Origin: a virus
Lineage: Duplodnaviria > Caudoviricetes
Virus record (IMG/VR): IMGVR_UViG_3300005527_000074
Location: 1-52,618 of that record
DNA: 52,618 nt
Direction: 5' to 3' (one strand)
Both the position numbers and the translations under genes were made by a program. The notes under the pieces are model-generated. The model saw only the letters and a program-made list of their open reading frames with translations, searched no databases and had not been told where the DNA came from. This document shows positions 2,589 through 50,477 of the stretch, piece after piece. The stretch's first letter is position 1. Every line of letters begins with the position of its first letter.

Positions 2589-5500
2589 ATGGCAAGAAAA
2601 AGACTATACGAGTATTCGTTTACACCTGGTACAGGTGGCCTGGGCACTGTCAAGGTTCCCGATAGGTACAATCTAGCGGATATATTGGCCATTTATGATA
2701 CAACAGTAAACGTTGCTATCTATAACTTTGCTGACAATACCATGGGCGGCACAGTGTCATGGGCTCCTGGGCCAACCGCTACTTTTCCCGCAGCGTATGC
2801 TGGTGTCACAACCATCACACTAGATCTTAATACTACCACACTCAGCGCCAATGACAAATTGGCTATCTACATCGAAGATCGTGCCTTGACAGTAGAACCC
2901 TGGGCATTTGGCGAAGATGCTATTGGTCGTAACAGAATTTCAAATCCCGAAGCTCTTATTGACGCTGACTTTGAATACGGTTTACAAAATACCAAATGGC
3001 AAAACGTCAGCACCAACAACAATATTCCTGGCTTCTATGAAGATATTGGCGGAGATATTGTTTACAACACCAATGGATATTTAAGTTTGTTGGCAGGTGA
3101 TGACCTAATTACATCCAACGTTGATACCAGTGTCAAGTTACAAAACCCTGGAACCCCGGCCTGGATTGCAAATGATTATGCTCTAGTTATCAGTCAAACT
3201 CAAGGCAATGTAACACCTTTTGTGAGTGCTTATCTCACAGCCAATGTCAACAGTTCTGCTGAAAGAACATTTACAGTTAACAGTACAACTGGTATCACTG
3301 CACTTGACAATGTGTTGATCATCAATCGCCCAATCAGTGGTGGTACCACACTGGCCACAGCCAATATTACCAGCACAGCAACAACCACAGTCAACGTGGC
3401 CAACGTTGCGGCCGCACCGTTAATTGTGGACGGCAGTTATATTATTGTAGAAACTGACACTTCGGGTGTGTATGAAACCATGGCAGTAACTAACGTAACA
3501 GCCAATACACTCACAGTTACTAGACAAACCAACAACACCAATGGTGCCGGAGCCAACATTACCATTGGAAGAAACGTTTATCCTGTAAGCACACTGGAAA
3601 TTGCTCAAGTGCAAGAAGTTACAGATAGCACCACTTTGCAACTGCAACGTGGTTGGTATAACATTCCTGCTGCCAATACTTTCTACAGCGGCAGCGTTAT
3701 TCAGCGTCTCAGTGCCAACGTAGAATTGGTCAAACAAACAGTGGTAAGCACCTTGGTCAATGGTACTCAAACCATCACTCGTGGTCAGTTTAATACCACT
3801 GCATTGACTGCAGCCGGTGCTGGATCACCGTTTGTACGCATGACTGGTATGTTCTATGCCAGCGGAAGCAATGCTCTAAGTGAAATTGGTGTCAACCAAA
3901 GTGACACTCCAGTTGTTACTGGATCATACGTCAGCAATCAAAATACAGCTTCGTCAAATGCCGAAGGTGTGTCATTGGTATCTTTGAGTGAGGACAACAA
4001 TTTCTTCTATTATCCTCGACGCACTCCTAGCCTAGCAGCTGGATACCCAATTAATCAATATGATTCTATCATACGGCAGGCCTTTCCTTACACTGGTGCA
4101 GATTTGGACATTGCGTCAATCACTAGCGATGGTGCCGATCCCAGTACTATTACTGTGACCACAGTCTATGCTCATGGTCTAGTACCAGGAACTCCAATTT
4201 TGGTAAATCTCAGTGCTGGCACCAACCAAGCCTACGGCGACGGTAGTTTTATTATTATTAGTATACCTAGCACAACAACCTTTACATATCAAGCCAAGAC
4301 AGGCGCAGCAGTTTCAGGATCGTTGGCTGGCATAATAAATGTACGGTCAAATGCAGTGTTCTTGCCAAGATCATTTGATGGTGGTGTGGTGTTAGGCCCA
4401 GGCACACCCACACGAGGCGCCAGCGCCATACGTCAGACTAAAAAATATTTCCGTTACCAGTCTGGTAAAGGTATCTTGTTCTCATCTGGTACTATGTTAA
4501 AACCAACGTTTGATATCAGTGCTTTGAGCGCAGCCGGCACAACTGTCAACAGCAATATCACAGTAACAACTGATCTAGAACACGGGCTAAACGCTGGTGC
4601 TACTATAACCATAAGTGGGGTGACCACAAGCGGATACGATGACACGGGTTACATAGTTACAACCATTGTCAGCGATACCAGCTTTGTTGTACAAGCTCAA
4701 AATGTACTGGGTAGTGCATCACCAGAATTGGGACAGCAACCTAGAATTGCAATCACAGCCTGGCATGGATCTAGTATTCGCGCTGGTATTTTTGATGATC
4801 AGAACGGCTTGTTCTGGGAATCAGATGGTATATCATTGAATGCTGTGCAACGAACCAGTACATTCCAACTTGCTGGCCTGGCCAGTGTAGGTGTGGGCTC
4901 AAACTTGGTAACTGGTGATGGTAATGGCCGATTCCAAGACCAACTCAACAACGGTGATGTAATTGTGATCAAGGGCATGACTCACAGTGTTACCAGCATA
5001 ACCAATAACAATCGCATGACTGTGGTACCAACATTCCGTGGGGTATCTAATCAAACTCGAGTTAAACTGACCTTGCGTAACGAAATTAGAGTTCGCCAGG
5101 ATGATTTCAACATTGACACCATAGATGGTACTGGACCCAGCGGATACACCATTGACACCAATAAAATGCAGATGTTGGGAATTGAGTATTCATGGTACGG
5201 TGCTGGTTATGTAACATGGATGGTGCGTGGTCAAGATGGTCGTTTTATTCACGCACATCGCAGACCCAACAACAACTTGAACAATGAAGCATACATGCGT
5301 TCTGGTAACTTGCCAGCACGATACGAAGCCATTAACGAAACTGCAACCAGCAGTTTAAATGGTTCCATTGATTCAAGTCAAACCACAATCACACTGCGTG
5401 ATGCAACTGATTACCCTGATGCGTCTGTGACTTATCCTGTGTTTGTGATGATTGACAGCGAAATTATCAAGTACAGTGGCAAAACTGGCAATGACCTAAC

Positions 5501-6994: not shown

Positions 6995-8370
6995 TGACCT
7001 CCAGGATAGAGGCCCTGATAACTTTTGATCCATGTTTCACCAGTCCACATATATTGTACACCAGTAGTTATGTTTGTGACATACTGAATACTAGATTGTG
7101 CGCTGGCATCAAATTTCACACGCCAATAACCATTTTGGTATTCAATTATGTCGTTGGCGCTAGCCACCAATGGCCGCCCGTTGGCTCCAACCCAGGCTTC
7201 AGCAGGCCCTTCATTGCCCAGTGCTCCAGTGCCTTCAGTAAGCAAATAGCGTTGACCATCTAGTGCACTGTCAAGTCCATTGAGAGGACCACTCAGTAGT
7301 GGGTTGACCACAGCATCTACGGGATCCAGCGTATTTTGTGGCACTGTGTCAATATCCACATCATACAACACAAATCGGTCATCGTTGGGATCTAGTGTAA
7401 TGGTACCAATTACTTCGGTATCATCAGGCTGAATCAGTCTAATCTGACTGACCCCAGGACGTAGAACGCCATACACGCCAATCACAGCAGGCCATAACAA
7501 GTTACTGTCACTCACAATGTCTGGAGGTACAAGGCTGCTGTTGGGTTGATCAACAATAGACGGATCACGCAATATTTGTATTTTGTTTCCAATCAAAACA
7601 ACTTGATAACTGTATGGAGTGAATATCTGTCGTGTGCCCAGCAACAAATCACTGTCAGTGATTGCATTGTTGGCATCACCTTGAGAATCATACACGCTGG
7701 CAATGATTCGTTCAATCACGCCCAGTTTCTTGACCTTAGCTGGTGGACTAATCCAAATTGGCAATGCAAACTTCATGGTGCAAATGTCAATGGGACTTTC
7801 TGTGCCTTGCGGAATTGTTCTAGAAGTCCACTGAGTGCTTTCTAATTCAACCACAGTCAAACTGGTCCAGTCAATGTAGTTGTCTGTGCTTTGCACTTCC
7901 AATGACGGATTGAACAAGGTCACAATCTGTTCAATCAACTGTAATTTTTGGTTGGTATTTGATGTCCAAAGATCAAGTGTGACTGTGAGTTTGTAAGGTA
8001 CAGGCATCAAGCGTTCGATAGTAAAAGCATTGCCTTGTGTGGTTTCGTATGTTTCTGTAGCTGGATCATACGTGCGTTGGCGCACAGCGATGTTGCTGAC
8101 AAAATAAGGTTCTTGCATTCTAGGACGATCATAGTCCAAGCCTGTGATGTAGAATGTCATCAACGGAGTTGACGGCAAACTGTTGCGTGAGTTGTCTTGC
8201 AATATGGTTTGGGCATTGCGACTGGCATCACCATAACGAATTGGTACTCGTAACAGTGCAGGAGTATCCGTACCTTCTTCGCGACCGTATTCCACTTGAA
8301 ATCCTGAAAAGATTCTAGTGAATTGTAGTAAGAATCTGCGTATCTGCTCGTCGTAAAAAAACTGTTGCAT
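6976..8370 (-). CDS. gp15: Tail terminator / sheath stabiliser, gp15-like, with C-terminal extension
   Basis: FFYDEQIRRFLLQF..F, RVPIRYG, MPVPY, QLIEQI..LFNP motifs; next to neck genes. Confidence 0.75.
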   Translation of the reverse strand: MQQFFYDEQIRRFLLQFTRIFSGFQVEYGREEGTDTPALLRVPIRYGDASRNAQTILQDNSRNSLPSTPLMTFYITGLDYDRPRMQEPYFVSNIAVRQRTYDPATETYETTQGNAFTIERLMPVPYKLTVTLDLWTSNTNQKLQLIEQIVTLFNPSLEVQSTDNYIDWTSLTVVELESTQWTSRTIPQGTESPIDICTMKFALPIWISPPAKVKKLGVIERIIASVYDSQGDANNAITDSDLLLGTRQIFTPYSYQVVLIGNKIQILRDPSIVDQPNSSLVPPDIVSDSNLLWPAVIGVYGVLRPGVSQIRLIQPDDTEVIGTITLDPNDDRFVLYDVDIDTVPQNTLDPVDAVVNPLLSGPLNGLDSALDGQRYLLTEGTGALGNEGPAEAWVGANGRPLVASANDIIEYQNGYWRVKFDASAQSSIQYVTNITTGVQYMWTGETWIKSYQGLYPGGQWILVL

Positions 8371-9727: not shown

Positions 9728-9756
9728 TTGACCAAATATTCTAAACCTGCTACAAT
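9728..9756 (+). promoter_or_regulatory. Early sigma70-type promoter
   Basis: TTGACC-N17-TACAAT with TGC extended -10; ATG 6 nt downstream. Confidence 0.8.
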
Positions 9757-10376: not shown

Positions 10377-11510
10377 ATGAGCACCACATTCAAAATTAAA
10401 CTGCTAAACCCCCGCAGTTCCGACACCAACATTCTTGGGATGGAGCCAACTTGGCAAGTCCAACCCACTGAGTATCGCATCACAGCATTGAGCAAAGCGT
10501 TCACCTGGTACAATTATTTTTACGGCAAAAAAGATGCCCGTGACATGATTGTGAATTATTTGGAAACACATGGTCGAAAGGCCGATGTGCGACTGCTCAA
10601 AGGCATTCCTGACTCGGCCATCCGCTTGACCACAGGCTGGTTGTGCCGCATGACCATGCTGGGCCTGGAGTTGAACGACAGCGAACAGGCTAGATTACAA
10701 AGCCAATTGAGAGAAATACTGGACAGCAAACAAAACACAGTGGAAGAAGCCCCAGAAGAACCAGTGGCGCCCAAGATCACAATTCAAGATCGTCTGCGTG
10801 AAAAAGCCAACGAGTGCGACGGTGAGCTAGAGGGCTTGTTTGACGAGTTCTTGTTGAGTGGTGCCAAGATGACCGCAGACTTCAAGCCTGTGGTGATCAT
10901 GCGTGGATTGAACATAGCGCCACAAATGGTCAGTCAAATTTCTGACAACTGGAAACGCAAACTGTCAGAGTTTGAACGTGTGGTAGAAGGTAAGGATGCA
11001 CAACTGGTTGAGGGCTACAGTCATCTCTCCAAGATTCAAATGCGCAACGTAATCAAGTTCTGCGAAGCTGTGATCAACGACTGCGGTGCTTATGTACAGA
11101 TCAAGAAAGTGGAACGCAAGCCACGCAAGGTCAAAGCAGTGCCACCCGAAAAACGTGCGGCTAAGTTTAAGATTCTGGCAGAATTTGCTGAACTCAAATT
11201 GAAATCATTACCGGCTGCAAGCCTTGTGGACAAGAGCGAAGCTTGGTTGTATGACACTAAAAAACGCAAATTGATTCACTTGGTAGCAGATGAATATGCC
11301 AAGGCCTTCACAGTCAAGAGCAACAGCATCATTGGTTTTTCTACAGCAGAAACCCTGCAAAAAACTGTGCGCAAACCACAGGACGTGGTCAAGGCCATGC
11401 AGGCCGCGGGCAAGCCAGCGGCACGTAAGATGTTTAAAGAGCTTACTACTACAGAAACTGCATGGAATGCTCGAGGTACTGAGAATTTGATTATACTCAA
11501 GTCTTGGTAA
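10377..11510 (+). CDS. Hypothetical protein of T4-like phages (377 aa)
   Basis: AAGGA RBS; long ORF with basic C-terminus (KTVRKP...NARGTENLIILK). Confidence 0.7.
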   Translation: MSTTFKIKLLNPRSSDTNILGMEPTWQVQPTEYRITALSKAFTWYNYFYGKKDARDMIVNYLETHGRKADVRLLKGIPDSAIRLTTGWLCRMTMLGLELNDSEQARLQSQLREILDSKQNTVEEAPEEPVAPKITIQDRLREKANECDGELEGLFDEFLLSGAKMTADFKPVVIMRGLNIAPQMVSQISDNWKRKLSEFERVVEGKDAQLVEGYSHLSKIQMRNVIKFCEAVINDCGAYVQIKKVERKPRKVKAVPPEKRAAKFKILAEFAELKLKSLPAASLVDKSEAWLYDTKKRKLIHLVADEYAKAFTVKSNSIIGFSTAETLQKTVRKPQDVVKAMQAAGKPAARKMFKELTTTETAWNARGTENLIILKSW

Positions 11511-47957: not shown

Positions 47958-48383
47958 ATGCTATATTTTGCCTATGGAATGAACACCAACTCACAAGGAA
48001 TGGCCCGACGTTGTCCGGCCGCTGTGAGTCACGGTCGTGCTGTGTTGCTGGATCATGTGTTTCGCTTTGCCGGTCCCGCTGACGTTGTAAAATGTCCTGA
48101 CAGCTATGTGGACGGAGTGCTGTGGAGTATCACACCCCAGTGTCTCAATGCCCTGGATATCCTAGAAGGATATCCTTATTACTACAATCGCAGGTTCAAA
48201 AAAGTGTTGTTCCAAGGCCGTGTGTGCCAGGCCATGACCTACTACATGCAACCTGGGCACCTTGACAGCGAGCCCAGTGCAGGCTACTTTGACATGGTTG
48301 TAGAGGGCTATCGTGAGCATGGTGTGCCCACAGAACAGCTCTATAATTCTGTATACTTTAGTACTACCTTAGAACCCTACTAA
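47958..48383 (+). CDS. Gamma-glutamylcyclotransferase-family protein
   Basis: LYFAYGMN, GVLW, LDILEGYP..Y. Confidence 0.85.
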   Translation: MLYFAYGMNTNSQGMARRCPAAVSHGRAVLLDHVFRFAGPADVVKCPDSYVDGVLWSITPQCLNALDILEGYPYYYNRRFKKVLFQGRVCQAMTYYMQPGHLDSEPSAGYFDMVVEGYREHGVPTEQLYNSVYFSTTLEPY

Positions 48384-48401
48384 ACCCTAGGGTTTTTTGG
48401 T

Positions 48402-48430
48402 TTGACCAATATTTCCCAATTTGCTATAAT
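48402..48430 (+). promoter_or_regulatory. Early sigma70-type promoter
   Basis: TTGACC-N17-TATAAT with TGC. Confidence 0.9.
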
Positions 48431-48460
48431 ATGGGTATAGTGAGCAACAAGGAGCCAGCA

Positions 48461-48667
48461 ATGGGTTACAAGGTTATTGAAGTTGACAACATGCGTGACA
48501 AATACGGTGCTCGCCCAGGCCTAGAAGGCCCGTTCAACTTCTCGGGCCGAGTGTTGTATTATGACAACAAAGAAGGCGCATACTATGACCCCCGTACTGA
48601 TTTCTATGTAGGCCAGGACGAAATGGACGCAATTAACCAACATTTTTACGAAATTCTTAAAAAGTAG
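48461..48667 (+). CDS. Small hypothetical early protein (68 aa)
   Basis: AAGGAGCCA RBS; MGYKVIE...GLEGPF...YYDNKEGAYYDP. Confidence 0.8.
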   Translation: MGYKVIEVDNMRDKYGARPGLEGPFNFSGRVLYYDNKEGAYYDPRTDFYVGQDEMDAINQHFYEILKK

Positions 48668-48690
48668 TACTTTTTAGTACTATTTTTTGG

Positions 48691-48719
48691 TTGACCAAAT
48701 ATTCCCATTTTGCTATAAT
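48691..48719 (+). promoter_or_regulatory. Early sigma70-type promoter
   Basis: TTGACC-N17-TATAAT with TGC. Confidence 0.9.
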
Positions 48720-48749
48720 AGAAGCATAGTAAGAAACAAGGAGCCACTA

Positions 48750-48930: not shown

Positions 48931-48959
48931 TTGACCAATAAATCCCAATCTGCTATAAT
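48931..48959 (+). promoter_or_regulatory. Early sigma70-type promoter
   Basis: TTGACC-N17-TATAAT with TGC. Confidence 0.9.
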
Positions 48960-48989
48960 ACAATTTTAACGCACAAAAAGGAGCCAACT

Positions 48990-50009
48990 ATGAGTGCAAT
49001 TCGTGTAATTAACGGTGTTTATCGCAACAAGCCCGTTCGCAATGTTACCTTTAACCTGGTGAAAGGTTACAGCGAAGGTAGCAAAGGCGGGTTTGTTACT
49101 GTACAATCTGATGGCTATTTTGGCCCGGAGTTTGATGTGGTGCGTATCCGTGTTGACGGCATTCGCGATTTTGAATATGTAAATGGGGTAGAAGCTGTGA
49201 AAGAAAACACCGTGAAGTTTGAGAAGACTGTAGAGACTGATGAGCAAGCCATGGATCGTATCCGTGAGCGTTTTGACATCCTGCATGAGATGACCAAGGC
49301 CTGTGTCGGCGGCGACATCCGTGCCATGATCGTGTCGGGCCCTCCTGGCGTTGGCAAGAGCTTTGGTGTGGAGCAAGAGATTGACAAGGCTACTTTGTTT
49401 GACAAGCTGGCTGGCAAACGTCTTAAGGCCGAGGTTGTTAAAGGCTCAGCCAGTCCTATCGGCCTGTACAAAACTCTGTACAAATACTCAGATGCCAATT
49501 GTGTGTTGGTGTTTGATGACTGTGACAGCATCTTGCTGGACGACGTTGCTCTTAACTTGCTGAAGGGTGCTCTGGACTCCGGCAAGAAGCGTAAGATTTC
49601 CTGGTTGAGCGAGAGCCGTGTATTGAGCCATGAGGGTATTCCAGACAGTTTTGAGTTCAAGGGTTCGGTAATTTTTATTACCAACTTGAAGTTTGACACC
49701 ATGCGTTCGCAGAAATTGCGGGACCACTTGGATGCACTGCAAAGCCGATGCCACTACTTGGACTTGACACTTGACACCATGCGTGACAAGGTCCTGCGTA
49801 TCAAGCAGATTGCCAAGGATGGTATATTGTTTGCAGACTACGATTTTGAAGAGTGTGTGCATGACGACATTATCAACTTCATGGACGAGAATCAGAATCG
49901 TTTGCGTGAGATGAGTTTGCGTATGGCGTTGAAGATTGCCGACTTGCGCAAGATGTCAGTGTTGAACTGGAAGCGTCTTGCAGAGACCACTTGCATGAAG
50001 GCAGCCTAA
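48990..50009 (+). CDS. AAA+ / P-loop ATPase
   Basis: GPPGVGKS Walker A, VLVFDD Walker B, IFITN sensor, ALQSR arginine finger; AAGGAGCCA RBS. Confidence 0.9.
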   Translation: MSAIRVINGVYRNKPVRNVTFNLVKGYSEGSKGGFVTVQSDGYFGPEFDVVRIRVDGIRDFEYVNGVEAVKENTVKFEKTVETDEQAMDRIRERFDILHEMTKACVGGDIRAMIVSGPPGVGKSFGVEQEIDKATLFDKLAGKRLKAEVVKGSASPIGLYKTLYKYSDANCVLVFDDCDSILLDDVALNLLKGALDSGKKRKISWLSESRVLSHEGIPDSFEFKGSVIFITNLKFDTMRSQKLRDHLDALQSRCHYLDLTLDTMRDKVLRIKQIAKDGILFADYDFEECVHDDIINFMDENQNRLREMSLRMALKIADLRKMSVLNWKRLAETTCMKAA

Positions 50010-50010
50010 C

Positions 50011-50127
50011 ATGTATGAAATATGGGATGGCGACCTGTATTTGTACTCGGTGGATACCGAGTACGAAGCAGATGAACAGCGTGAAGCAGGCTTCACAGTC
50101 AAATGTCTAGAGTATTACGGAGCATGA
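50011..50127 (+). CDS. Small acidic protein (38 aa, not in ORF track)
   Basis: MYEIWDGDLYLYSVDTEYEADEQREAGFTVKCLEYYGA; 1-nt gaps to both neighbours. Confidence 0.6.
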   Translation: MYEIWDGDLYLYSVDTEYEADEQREAGFTVKCLEYYGA

Positions 50128-50128
50128 T

Positions 50129-50311
50129 ATGAGTTGGGTACTGATTTTGTTTGTGCATGCTGGCATGCTGAGTGAAAAGGATAGCATGGCTATCACTACT
50201 GTTTCGGGCTTTAAGTCCGAAACAGTGTGCATGACAGCTGGTAAACAGAGTGAGGCTCTGGTCAAACGCACAACCAAAGAAGTGCGGTTTGTTTGTGTCA
50301 AACAAGACTGA
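50129..50311 (+). CDS. Small protein with hydrophobic N-terminus (60 aa)
   Basis: MSWVLILFV...F.SETVC..AG...CVKQ; tightly packed in the operon. Confidence 0.65.
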   Translation: MSWVLILFVHAGMLSEKDSMAITTVSGFKSETVCMTAGKQSEALVKRTTKEVRFVCVKQD

Positions 50312-50312
50312 C

Positions 50313-50381
50313 ATGGATAGTGATAAGGCTTTCTTTGGCACCATACTGGCATTGATTATTTTTGCAATAGCGATGGTTTAG
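50313..50381 (+). CDS. 22-aa transmembrane peptide (not in ORF track)
   Basis: MDSDKAFFGTILALIIFAIAMV; 1 nt after the upstream stop. Confidence 0.45.
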   Translation: MDSDKAFFGTILALIIFAIAMV

Positions 50382-50385
50382 TTTT

Positions 50386-50450
50386 CCTGGGCATACAAAC
50401 GGTTGGCTCCGGCCCAGGCTTTACACAGGGACTTCGGTCCCTGTTTTTTT
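50386..50450 (+). ncRNA. Candidate structured RNA with an anti-RBS loop
   Basis: Stem cctgggc/gcccagg encloses GTTGGCTCC, complementary to GGAGCCAAC; a terminator hairpin follows. Confidence 0.45.
50425..50450 (+). terminator. Intrinsic terminator with cUUCGg tetraloop
   Basis: acagggac-ttcg-gtccctgt followed by a T run. Confidence 0.92.
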
Positions 50451-50477
50451 GACTTTTTCTAGCGGTAAGTATATACT
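50449..50477 (+). promoter_or_regulatory. Sigma70-type promoter overlapping the terminator T tract
   Basis: TTGACT-N17-TATACT; ATG 6 nt downstream. Confidence 0.75.

Follow-up and report, generated by a model that had tools for sequence, protein, structure and literature searches.

What would a hairpin do at the 3' end of an early phage operon when its loop is the reverse complement of the ribosome-binding site (RBS) at which translation of that operon begins? The question is raised by a stretch of tailed-phage DNA of 52,618 nucleotides (nt) (Duplodnaviria; Caudoviricetes; IMG/VR virus record IMGVR_UViG_3300005527_000074, positions 1 to 52,618), which was analyzed over its full length and is called the window below. 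Near its end, a gene for an AAA ATPase and three small open reading frames (ORFs) are followed by a hairpin at 50386-50418 and then by an intrinsic terminator. Control of genes by the 3' ends of mRNAs is known from a few bacterial cases. According to the original prediction for this locus, the hairpin is a riboregulator whose loop pairs with the RBS of the ATPase gene and with those of two small genes upstream of it, either in trans or within one operon mRNA. By comparing the locus with its relatives in IMG/VR, we find that the hairpin is a real, conserved and previously undescribed RNA element and that its loop has changed together with the ATPase RBS. It probably acts as an anti-RBS element in the 3' untranslated region (UTR) that would shut off translation of the ATPase.

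Results

The hairpin and its complement in the window

The letters bear out the proposed fold, a 7-bp outer stem followed by a terminator with a UUCG (TTCG) loop, coordinates included (Table 1), and likewise the exact reverse complementarity of the loop segment 50402-50410 to the ATPase RBS at 48980-48988, which ends 1 nt before the ATG at 48990. U48989 can wobble with G50401, for 10 bp in total; we refer to the loop segment 50401-50410 as the seed. Pairing of the loop with the two upstream genes was also confirmed, over 9 bp with one G-U at 48451-48459 and over 7 bp at 48740-48746. Folding predicts both hairpins, with a minimum free energy of -29.8 kcal/mol (z = -3.0; 2 of 200 shuffles were as good), and the computed duplex of the loop is worth -19.4 kcal/mol with the ATPase RBS, -18.4 kcal/mol with the RBS of the first small gene and -14.7 kcal/mol with that of the second, whereas opening the inner stem of the loop would cost about 3 kcal/mol. 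When element and target were folded together, the free-energy difference (ddG) for the ATPase target was -6.2 kcal/mol, as compared with a mean of -0.9 for seed-shuffled controls; the two small-gene targets, at -4.8 and -2.9 kcal/mol, stood against control means of -3.7 and -3.6. A genome-wide duplexfold ranking of start regions against the element was set aside; it placed the ATPase ninth of 118, and spurious long-range pairings dominated the energies of long windows. At its gathering thresholds Rfam gave no match in the window, and at relaxed thresholds it gave two weak matches to the terminator hairpin only (22 bits against 60, and 21.8 against 55).

By itself, the window is weak evidence, and the case against chance rests on the relatives. 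The original prediction had assumed that a specified 9-mer would be met about once per 260 kb, an expectation that fails here because the window is rich in repeated 9-mers: the 9-mer and its complement occur five times, and 320 distinct 9-mers of this repetitive genome are met at least five times. Further copies of the 9-nt RBS word lie at 3549, at 7180 (in a minus-strand gene) and at 10442, in each case inside a large ORF and in the sense of its mRNA; two of these three ORFs match virion or tail PHROGs, and the third (10377-11510) is unannotated.

Joint change of the RBS and the element among relatives

Relatives were drawn from four scans of IMG/VR, from each of which the best 80 stretches were kept (out of at least 600 in three of the scans), and the resulting sample is partial and biased by the choice of query ATPases. 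The first scan yielded 80 loci with an ATPase 75-94% identical to that of the window, and three more, seeded with the ATPases of odd loci, brought the collection to 279 loci (given below by numbers beginning with L) plus the window. These comprise 164 unique ATPase-plus-RBS sequences, 162 of which have at least 150 nt downstream, and a terminator was found after the ATPase in 156 of the 162.

Among the first 80 loci, 66 carry the 9-nt loop word of the window after the ATPase, in a hairpin that is followed by a terminator, and all 65 of those that have the RBS on the locus possess the 7-nt RBS core. Both the core and the loop word are absent from 12 loci, and the remaining 2 end within 100 nt past the ATPase. 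The 56 unique canonical sequences were chosen by the 9-nt word, so that the invariance of this word is given by construction; the structure around it is informative in its own right. In their alignment, 97.6% of the cells are paired, as compared with 88.8% in shuffles, none of 500 of which reached the observed values, and slid controls were at most 60% paired. Changes on both sides were found in 10 of 18 pairs, including 4 of the 5 modeled pairs of the outer stem and 6 of the 10 in the terminator, and the stem covariation that had been named as a check is thus present; the inner cgg/ccg stem, which had been proposed to present a kissing loop, is invariant in 2 of its 3 pairs and hence uninformative on covariation. 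A covariance model built from the canonical set located the homologous terminator region in the 12 odd loci, most of which carry a different word 5' of the terminator that is complementary to their own, different ATPase RBS.

We therefore measured, in all 156 loci, the longest Watson-Crick complement that the RBS window (-22 to +3) finds within the 45 nt preceding the terminator. It was 11 nt long in 29 loci, 10 nt in 39, 9 nt in 60, 8 nt in 9 and 7 nt in 8; in the other 11 loci it did not exceed 6 nt. Complements of 8 nt or more to the locus's own ATPase RBS are thus present in 137 of the 156. In four of the 11 short cases the script had taken another terminator, and a match of 9-10 nt sits at the proper one. 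In 11,000 trials with shuffled elements, a match of at least 8 nt arose 159 times and one of at least 9 nt 34 times, and same-sense matches never exceeded 6 nt in 55 representatives.

The RBS/loop pair of the window is the commonest type among the relatives. Beside it, there are at least 10 other pairs with different letters and a complement of 7-11 nt: L063/82/83/141, L204/207/208, L118, L230, L240/241/244, L076/103/137/140, L048/043/211/213/215/216, L080/162-165/195, L188/191/197/203 and L198. These types were defined by the matched word, which replaced typing by RBS 16-mers or by single linkage on 5'-UTR 8-mers; both of the latter mixed types through shared A-rich stretches. Between the L063 and L204 groups, a single position of the RBS differs, and the matching position of the element differs too. 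On the ATPase tree (FastTree, 162 rows; a quick tree with local supports only, which makes the number of switches approximate), several variant types are sisters of canonical rows: L204/207/208 stand by L205, L063/082/083/141 by L053/L068, L118 by L047, L230 by L237 and L240/241/244 by L233. Because these variant pairs sit inside the canonical clade beside canonical sisters, it follows that RBS and 3' element have repeatedly switched in concert. On the tree, the RBS core and the anti-core of the canonical type change 12 times each, and close relatives with 92-93% ATPase identity carry unrelated seed/RBS pairs.

Counts over the 156 rows tell the same story, with RBS core and anti-core both present in 104, both absent in 49 and the RBS core alone in 3. 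The loop is thus kept in 104 of the 107 unique relatives that keep the RBS core (one of the three misses, L058, is a script error), and loss of the loop under a retained RBS, which had been named as the outcome that would speak against the pairing, is not what the relatives display. A match of 7 nt or more to the locus's own RBS is found in 44 of the 49 non-canonical rows, which is the loop/RBS co-variation that had been proposed as a check. When 10 independent pairs of loci that differ in the RBS core were compared, the element differed in the same direction in 7-8, in the opposite direction in none and not at all in 2-3 (sign test, p ~0.008). A conservative permutation at the level of 12 types gave P <= 3e-5, with an observed sum of 93 against a mean of 70.5 (sd 4.5); a few permuted sums exceeded the observed one, and the highest was 97. 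Judged by this comparison of sequences, RNA-RNA pairing of the operon's 3' end with the ATPase initiation region is under selection. The core of the original prediction, a 3' element of the ATPase operon that pairs with the RBS, is thus strongly supported by the retention and the co-switching of the two sites.

Deviations from perfect pairing are often compatible with G-U pairs: position 10 of the RBS is U, which can wobble with G, in 16 of 75 unique ATPase RBSs, and position 8 is G, which can wobble with U, in 42 of 85 RBSs of upstream genes. Such deviations would favor recognition as RNA over recognition as duplex DNA. Cultured homologues were also considered as carriers and rejected; the loci of T6 nrdC.10 and of a PA5oct-like Pseudomonas phage have complements of 7 and 8 nt that lie away from the terminator.

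Layout of the element across types

Without exception, the element is on the coding strand and directly precedes the terminator that closes the ATPase unit; its distance from the ATPase stop ranges from 3 to ~2,090 nt, with zero to several small ORFs between. In 147 of 149 loci, the stretch from the ATPase stop to the element is free of promoter-like sites, and the element stands at the first terminator, so that target and element are co-transcribed. In the canonical, L063 and L080 types, among others, the seed occupies a large loop closed by a stem of 7-10 bp whose letters are type-specific, whereas the L048 type has no enclosing stem and its seed is single-stranded, directly 5' of a small hairpin and the terminator. 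Which part of the initiation region is paired differs by type, the range being from upstream of the Shine-Dalgarno (SD) sequence to the spacer. There is one copy of the element in the window and one per record in all five records of 115-349 kb.

Several loci have further hairpins nearby. An extra small hairpin lies ~10-25 nt upstream of the element stem in L005, L009-L015, L020, L023 and others; its loop often holds CUCC, another anti-SD-like word, and the letters of its stem vary by locus. In the small clade of L185/L187/L192, the anti-SD word is followed, ~20-60 nt past the ATPase stop, by a hairpin whose loop is complementary over 7-9 nt to sequence around the ATPase start codon; this complement and that of the anti-SD word are out of line with each other, so that a single continuous duplex could not form, and the starts assigned to these genes are off by a few codons. 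L063 contains a cassette inserted between the ATPase gene and the element, at 4634-4700 (at the same place in L082); it is made up of a terminator-like hairpin, a promoter and a 152-aa (amino acid) gene, and its 5' UTR resembles that of the ATPase gene.

Tagged RBSs beyond the ATPase gene

The original prediction further proposed that the three genes with a GGAGCCA-type RBS form a regulon. The shared tag and its capacity to pair are indeed present in the window, but only the ATPase RBS co-varies with the element everywhere, and in the cofold the other two targets behave as the controls do. Similarly, the CCA that follows GGAG in all three RBSs, although present as described, is partly accounted for by repeated promoter/SD cassettes of the PeSL type (see below).

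Across 105 canonical loci, the 7-nt tag occupies 202 RBS positions, namely 105 of ATPase genes, 96 of upstream genes and 1 beyond the terminator, and 196 of the 202 are within 75 nt of a TTGAC-N-TAnnnT promoter. In G001, the largest record (349 kb, 97% complete), GGAG is followed by CCA more often than by any other trinucleotide (at 12 of 114 RBS-like sites); CCA follows 8 of 20 promoter-proximal GGAG sites, as compared with 4 of 94 others, and four of the eight tagged promoter-proximal sites are far from the element, at ~4, 118, 193 and 234 kb. Pairing at such dispersed sites does not extend beyond 7 nt. Three records of variant types (315 kb in total) have no tagged RBS, whereas three canonical records have 19, 9 and 8. 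As for the variant seeds themselves, L188/L203 and L240/241/244 have their own tag on upstream genes as well, but the ATPase RBS is the sole clear target in most variant types. G008 (338 kb, 97% complete, variant type) yielded no promoter-proximal set for its own seed, in a scan in which the promoter pattern found no site in that genome and the classifier of starts was permissive. The scan for promoter-proximal tagged RBSs that had been suggested thus gave enrichment in the canonical loci and in G001 and none for the variant seed of G008, and a GGAGCCA regulon, only partly supported, is possible, as is action of the element in trans.

Promoters, terminators and small genes around the element

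The features of the locus are collected in Table 1.

Table 1. Features of the ATPase locus (window coordinates)
Feature	Position	Strand	Details
Promoter cassette 1 and RBS of first small gene	48402-48459	+	RBS 48451-48459; likely ATG 48461
A/U-rich terminator-like hairpin after first small gene	48657-48690	+	-13.9 kcal/mol, z = -4.0; 0 of 200 shuffles as good
Promoter cassette 2 and RBS of second small gene	48691-48746	+	RBS 48740-48746; ATG 48750
Promoter of ATPase unit	48931-48959	+	sigma-70-type early; TTGACC, 17 nt, TATAAT; TG before -10; 11 of 12 consensus matches
Target site: SD and spacer of ATPase gene	48979-48989	+	48980-48988 exactly complementary to 50402-50410
AAA ATPase gene	48990-50009	+	339 aa (amino acids); T4/T6 NrdC.10 homologue; phrog_1250 (function unknown); gene with the paired RBS
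Three small ORFs between ATPase and element	50011-50381	+	38 aa, 60 aa and a hydrophobic one of 22 aa (50313-50381)
Hairpin with anti-RBS seed	50386-50418	+	7-bp outer stem (50386-50392/50412-50418), 19-nt loop, seed 50401-50410, optional 3-bp inner stem
Intrinsic terminator	50425-50450	+	8-bp stem (50425/6-50443/4), TTCG loop, 7 T; ends ATPase transcription unit
Next promoter	50449-50477	+	TTGACT, 17 nt, TATACT; -35 overlaps T run of terminator; TTGAC kept in most aligned relatives

The RBSs of the two small genes and of the ATPase gene stand behind near-identical promoter cassettes beginning at 48402, 48691 and 48931, and promoters of the same type at 9728, 10021 and 47923 precede different RBSs. 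A terminator hairpin followed by a TTGAC-type early promoter occurs at 48371-48430, 48657-48719 and 50425-50477, which is the layout of the PeSL cassettes of T4-type phages, and the full set of parts by which such cassettes are recognized (a stem-loop terminator, a sigma-70-type early promoter, an SD sequence and a start, in repeated form) is found at these three junctions. This match covers the terminator and promoter parts and excludes the anti-RBS hairpin.

For the first small gene, the ORF finder gave a start at 48431, inside the -10 region of its promoter (the -10 ends at 48430); most likely, translation starts at the in-frame ATG at 48461, which stands 1 nt past the RBS (48450-48459), for a protein of 68 aa. 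If the hairpin at 48657-48690 terminates transcription, this gene would be a separate transcript. The small ORFs after the ATPase differ among relatives in number and identity, and for the 60-aa and 22-aa ORFs of the window (50129-50381) no family match was found.

The source phage and its ATPase

The IMG/VR record of the window is a linear fragment with an estimated completeness of 15%, and its frames at the two ends show no in-frame join. Since this fragment carries, among other genes, those for a tail sheath, a terminase and virion proteins, and since relatives of the ATPase locus stand on records of 250-349 kb, G001 being the largest, the source phage is a large freshwater myophage, and it is probably a jumbo myophage of ~350 kb. 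No similarity to deposited phages was found for the window at the DNA level. The ATPase is 30-43% identical to proteins in 1,307 phage records, and its nearest matches among solved structures are weak ones to Lon AAA+ proteins, which are insufficient to assign a function. Homologues of this NrdC.10-like ATPase in GenBank phages are often named 'thioredoxin', 'clamp loader' or 'integrase/recombinase', or are called hypothetical, and such labels look like names borrowed from neighboring genes or passed on by automatic transfer.

Discussion

We consider it fairly probable that the hairpin at 50386-50418 serves as a 3'-UTR element that pairs with the RBS of the ATPase gene and shuts off its translation. 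The hairpin, its complementarity to the RBS, their joint evolution and their co-transcription are observed; shut-off of translation is the likely function, as suggested by the position of the pairing on the initiation region. In the mechanism that we propose, the host RNA polymerase would start at the promoter at 48931 and stop at the terminator at 50425-50450, so that the element would be synthesized last and on the same RNA as its target. The loop (50401-50410) would then pair with the SD sequence and spacer of the ATPase gene (48980-48989) in competition with the 30S subunit, and new initiation would be turned off on finished transcripts. The outcome would be negative feedback or a limited burst of ATPase per transcript. 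Such pairing may be intramolecular (3' to 5'), may join copies of the operon mRNA, or may involve a fragment cut from the 3' end; near-universal co-transcription, the ATPase RBS as the only universal target and the weak cofold of the other two targets would argue for action on the element's own transcript.

Several observations weigh against such a shut-off of the ATPase by its own 3' end. The complement is only 6 nt long, essentially the SD sequence, in L066/069/170, L169/173, L166, L044 and L217, and L038, L199 and L278 give unclear complementarity. In L063 and L082 the inserted cassette, with its terminator-like hairpin and promoter, parts the ATPase from the element, and pairing there would require read-through or action in trans; the dispersed promoter-proximal tags of canonical genomes likewise suit a trans regulator better than pure feedback. 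The net gain in the cofold is modest (-6.2 kcal/mol) once the hairpin has been opened, the best seed-shuffled control reaching -5.4, and two G and two C of the seed could be locked in the inner stem. Six metatranscriptome runs contain small shares of the window, and the contigs of the four that were compared with it supply only a few short pieces (three of them identical and 151 nt long), which cover 50058-50403 and never extend past 50403; contigs cannot show the ends, strand or level of an RNA. Finally, we only infer that the pairing would repress, rather than protect, its target.

Elements of this arrangement have been described in other systems, with which we compare the locus on the basis of the accessible parts of the cited papers. 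In Staphylococcus aureus, an anti-SD motif (UCCCCUG) in the icaR mRNA's long 3' UTR pairs with the SD sequence of the same mRNA, blocks formation of the initiation complex and creates a substrate for RNase III (PMC3868564). As in icaR, the anti-SD sequence of the phage element lies in the 3' end of the transcript that carries the complementary SD sequence (147 of 149 loci). Unlike that of icaR, the phage duplex spans 7-11 bp, its anti-SD strand is presented in a hairpin loop beside the terminator of a polycistronic operon, and its seed has been exchanged many times among relatives; cis action and a role of RNase III would be putative here. OppZ and CarZ of Vibrio cholerae are small RNAs (sRNAs) derived from 3' UTRs that share the terminator of their operon, pair with their own transcript and inhibit its translation in a negative feedback; they are released by RNase E and linked to Hfq (the latter according to the keywords of the paper), and OppZ also triggers Rho-dependent termination (PMC7398697). 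The phage element resembles them in its place at the 3' end of an operon, in sharing the intrinsic terminator and in its computed complementarity to the initiation region of its own operon. It differs in being phage-borne, in having the RBS of the first gene as its target and in being known from sequence alone.

The PeSL cassettes of T4-type phages, which combine a terminator stem-loop, an early promoter and an SD sequence, are considered as shuffling and regulatory cassettes (PMC2839356, PMC4122927). The terminator/promoter junctions of the window, the repeated promoter/SD modules before three genes and the T4-type ATPase are all in keeping with them, whereas an anti-RBS hairpin 5' of the terminator is absent from the PeSL description, and the accessible text of these two papers mentions neither complementarity nor antisense. 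Early mRNAs of T4 itself are turned off by proteins: the endonuclease RegB cuts GGAG, and the repressor RegA binds A/U-rich operators (PMC3014915). The apparent aim of the phage element would be the same, namely the turning off of early mRNA at translation initiation regions, but its specificity would reside in RNA sequence and not in a protein. Among phages, the processed c4 antisense RNA comes nearest. The c4 RNAs of P1 and P7 differ in specificity and lie upstream of their targets in an immunity operon of temperate phages. In P1, c4 is processed from a transcript and, by antisense pairing, represses synthesis of proteins of the same operon (PMC8546580). Unlike c4, the present element lies at the 3' end of its operon, which is an early one of a large, T4-like myophage of virulent type, and its action in trans would be putative. 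A literature search on phage 3'-UTR and anti-SD sRNAs, in which few subscription journals were covered, yielded no such element in lytic phages as far as the accessible texts go. A further arrangement was considered for the locus. In mRNAs of type I toxins of the hok type, the initiation region for a small toxic peptide is masked by the 3' end until the RNA has been processed. A fold-back of this kind was rejected for the window; the paired RBS is that of the 339-aa ATPase and not of the small hydrophobic ORFs at 50129-50381.

The alternative that comes closest is that the hairpin and the terminator form a trans-acting, 3'-derived sRNA of ~65-70 nt that would repress every early mRNA with a matching tag, including those of co-infecting relatives; we regard this as possible and rather unlikely. 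It would be in keeping with the proximity of 196 of the 202 tagged RBSs to promoters, with the enrichment of the tag near promoters in G001, in part far from the element, and with its absence from the variant records (0 against 19, 9 and 8). The terminator-like hairpin of the first small gene, the terminator and promoter that part target from element in L063/L082 and the tags on upstream genes in L188/L203 and L240/241/244 also suit it, and unrelated pairs at 92-93% ATPase identity would fit selection for new specificity more easily than drift. On the other hand, the dispersed sites lack pairing past the 7-nt tag, duplication of PeSL promoter/SD cassettes can pass tags on, most variant types offer no clear target besides the ATPase RBS, G008 lacks a promoter-proximal set for its own seed, the two small-gene targets of the window equal seed-shuffled controls in the cofold, and no small RNA was observed in the RNA data, which are at contig level. 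An extension of this idea, to which we would give a smaller chance still, is that the seed/RBS pair is a switchable address by which a 3' fragment may act in trans, including on co-infecting relatives, and that the many wholesale swaps among close relatives record conflict between phages, a form of translational hetero-immunity in large virulent phages.

Other explanations dispense with repression or with RNA pairing. By covering the GGAG of the ATPase RBS, the element might protect it from decay or from an SD-cutting endonuclease akin to RegB, and so prolong expression; T4 RegB cuts in GGAG, RNA structure protects against it (PMC3014915), and the ATPase is a homologue of a T4-type gene. However, a paired SD sequence is equally closed to ribosomes, and GGAG is missing from the paired segment of the L063 and L204 types, whose complement is nevertheless 10 nt long, so that protection appears very improbable; the finding of no RegB or RegA family match in the window adds little weight, the window being ~15% of the genome and the control genomes also being without a match. 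More doubtful again is a role at the level of DNA, in which the 9-11-bp words would be sites for a DNA-binding protein or a recombinase that loops or inverts the ATPase segment. Complementarity within one strand is an inverted repeat in the duplex, and covariation alone cannot separate the two. Repeats of 9-11 bp are, however, short for recombinase sites, and one word always lies on the SD sequence and spacer while the other is always in a loop or single-stranded 5' of a terminator on the same strand. In addition, the enclosing stem covaries, the position of the paired segment on the initiation region differs by type, the deviations are enriched for G-U-compatible changes, and a protein model demands a third partner that switches at every change. 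The explanation to which we give the least credence is that there is no regulatory pairing at all, the hairpin being a 3' stabilizer or a helper of the terminator and the RBS match a coincidence frozen by descent. Tandem 3' hairpins are common, and the match in the window is unremarkable when taken alone (with five occurrences of the 9-mer family and many other repeated 9-mers). Such an account would fit the comparative data poorly: it leaves the joint switches to unrelated sequences on the ATPase tree unexplained, and permuted pairings fail to match.

If shut-off by the 3' element is true, the locus would provide a phage example of control by an mRNA 3' end with unusually clear comparative evidence, in giant freshwater myophages that are abundant and uncultured. 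The element is a candidate for a new RNA family, and with it the PeSL cassettes of T4-type phages would gain a further level of function; it also offers a testable handle on a conserved T4-type, NrdC.10-like ATPase of unassigned function. Its natural variants constitute a ready series of matched and mismatched seed/RBS pairs that may be usable as orthogonal translational switches; if seed and RBS do act as an address, the family would be a natural set of at least 10 orthogonal riboregulator pairs.

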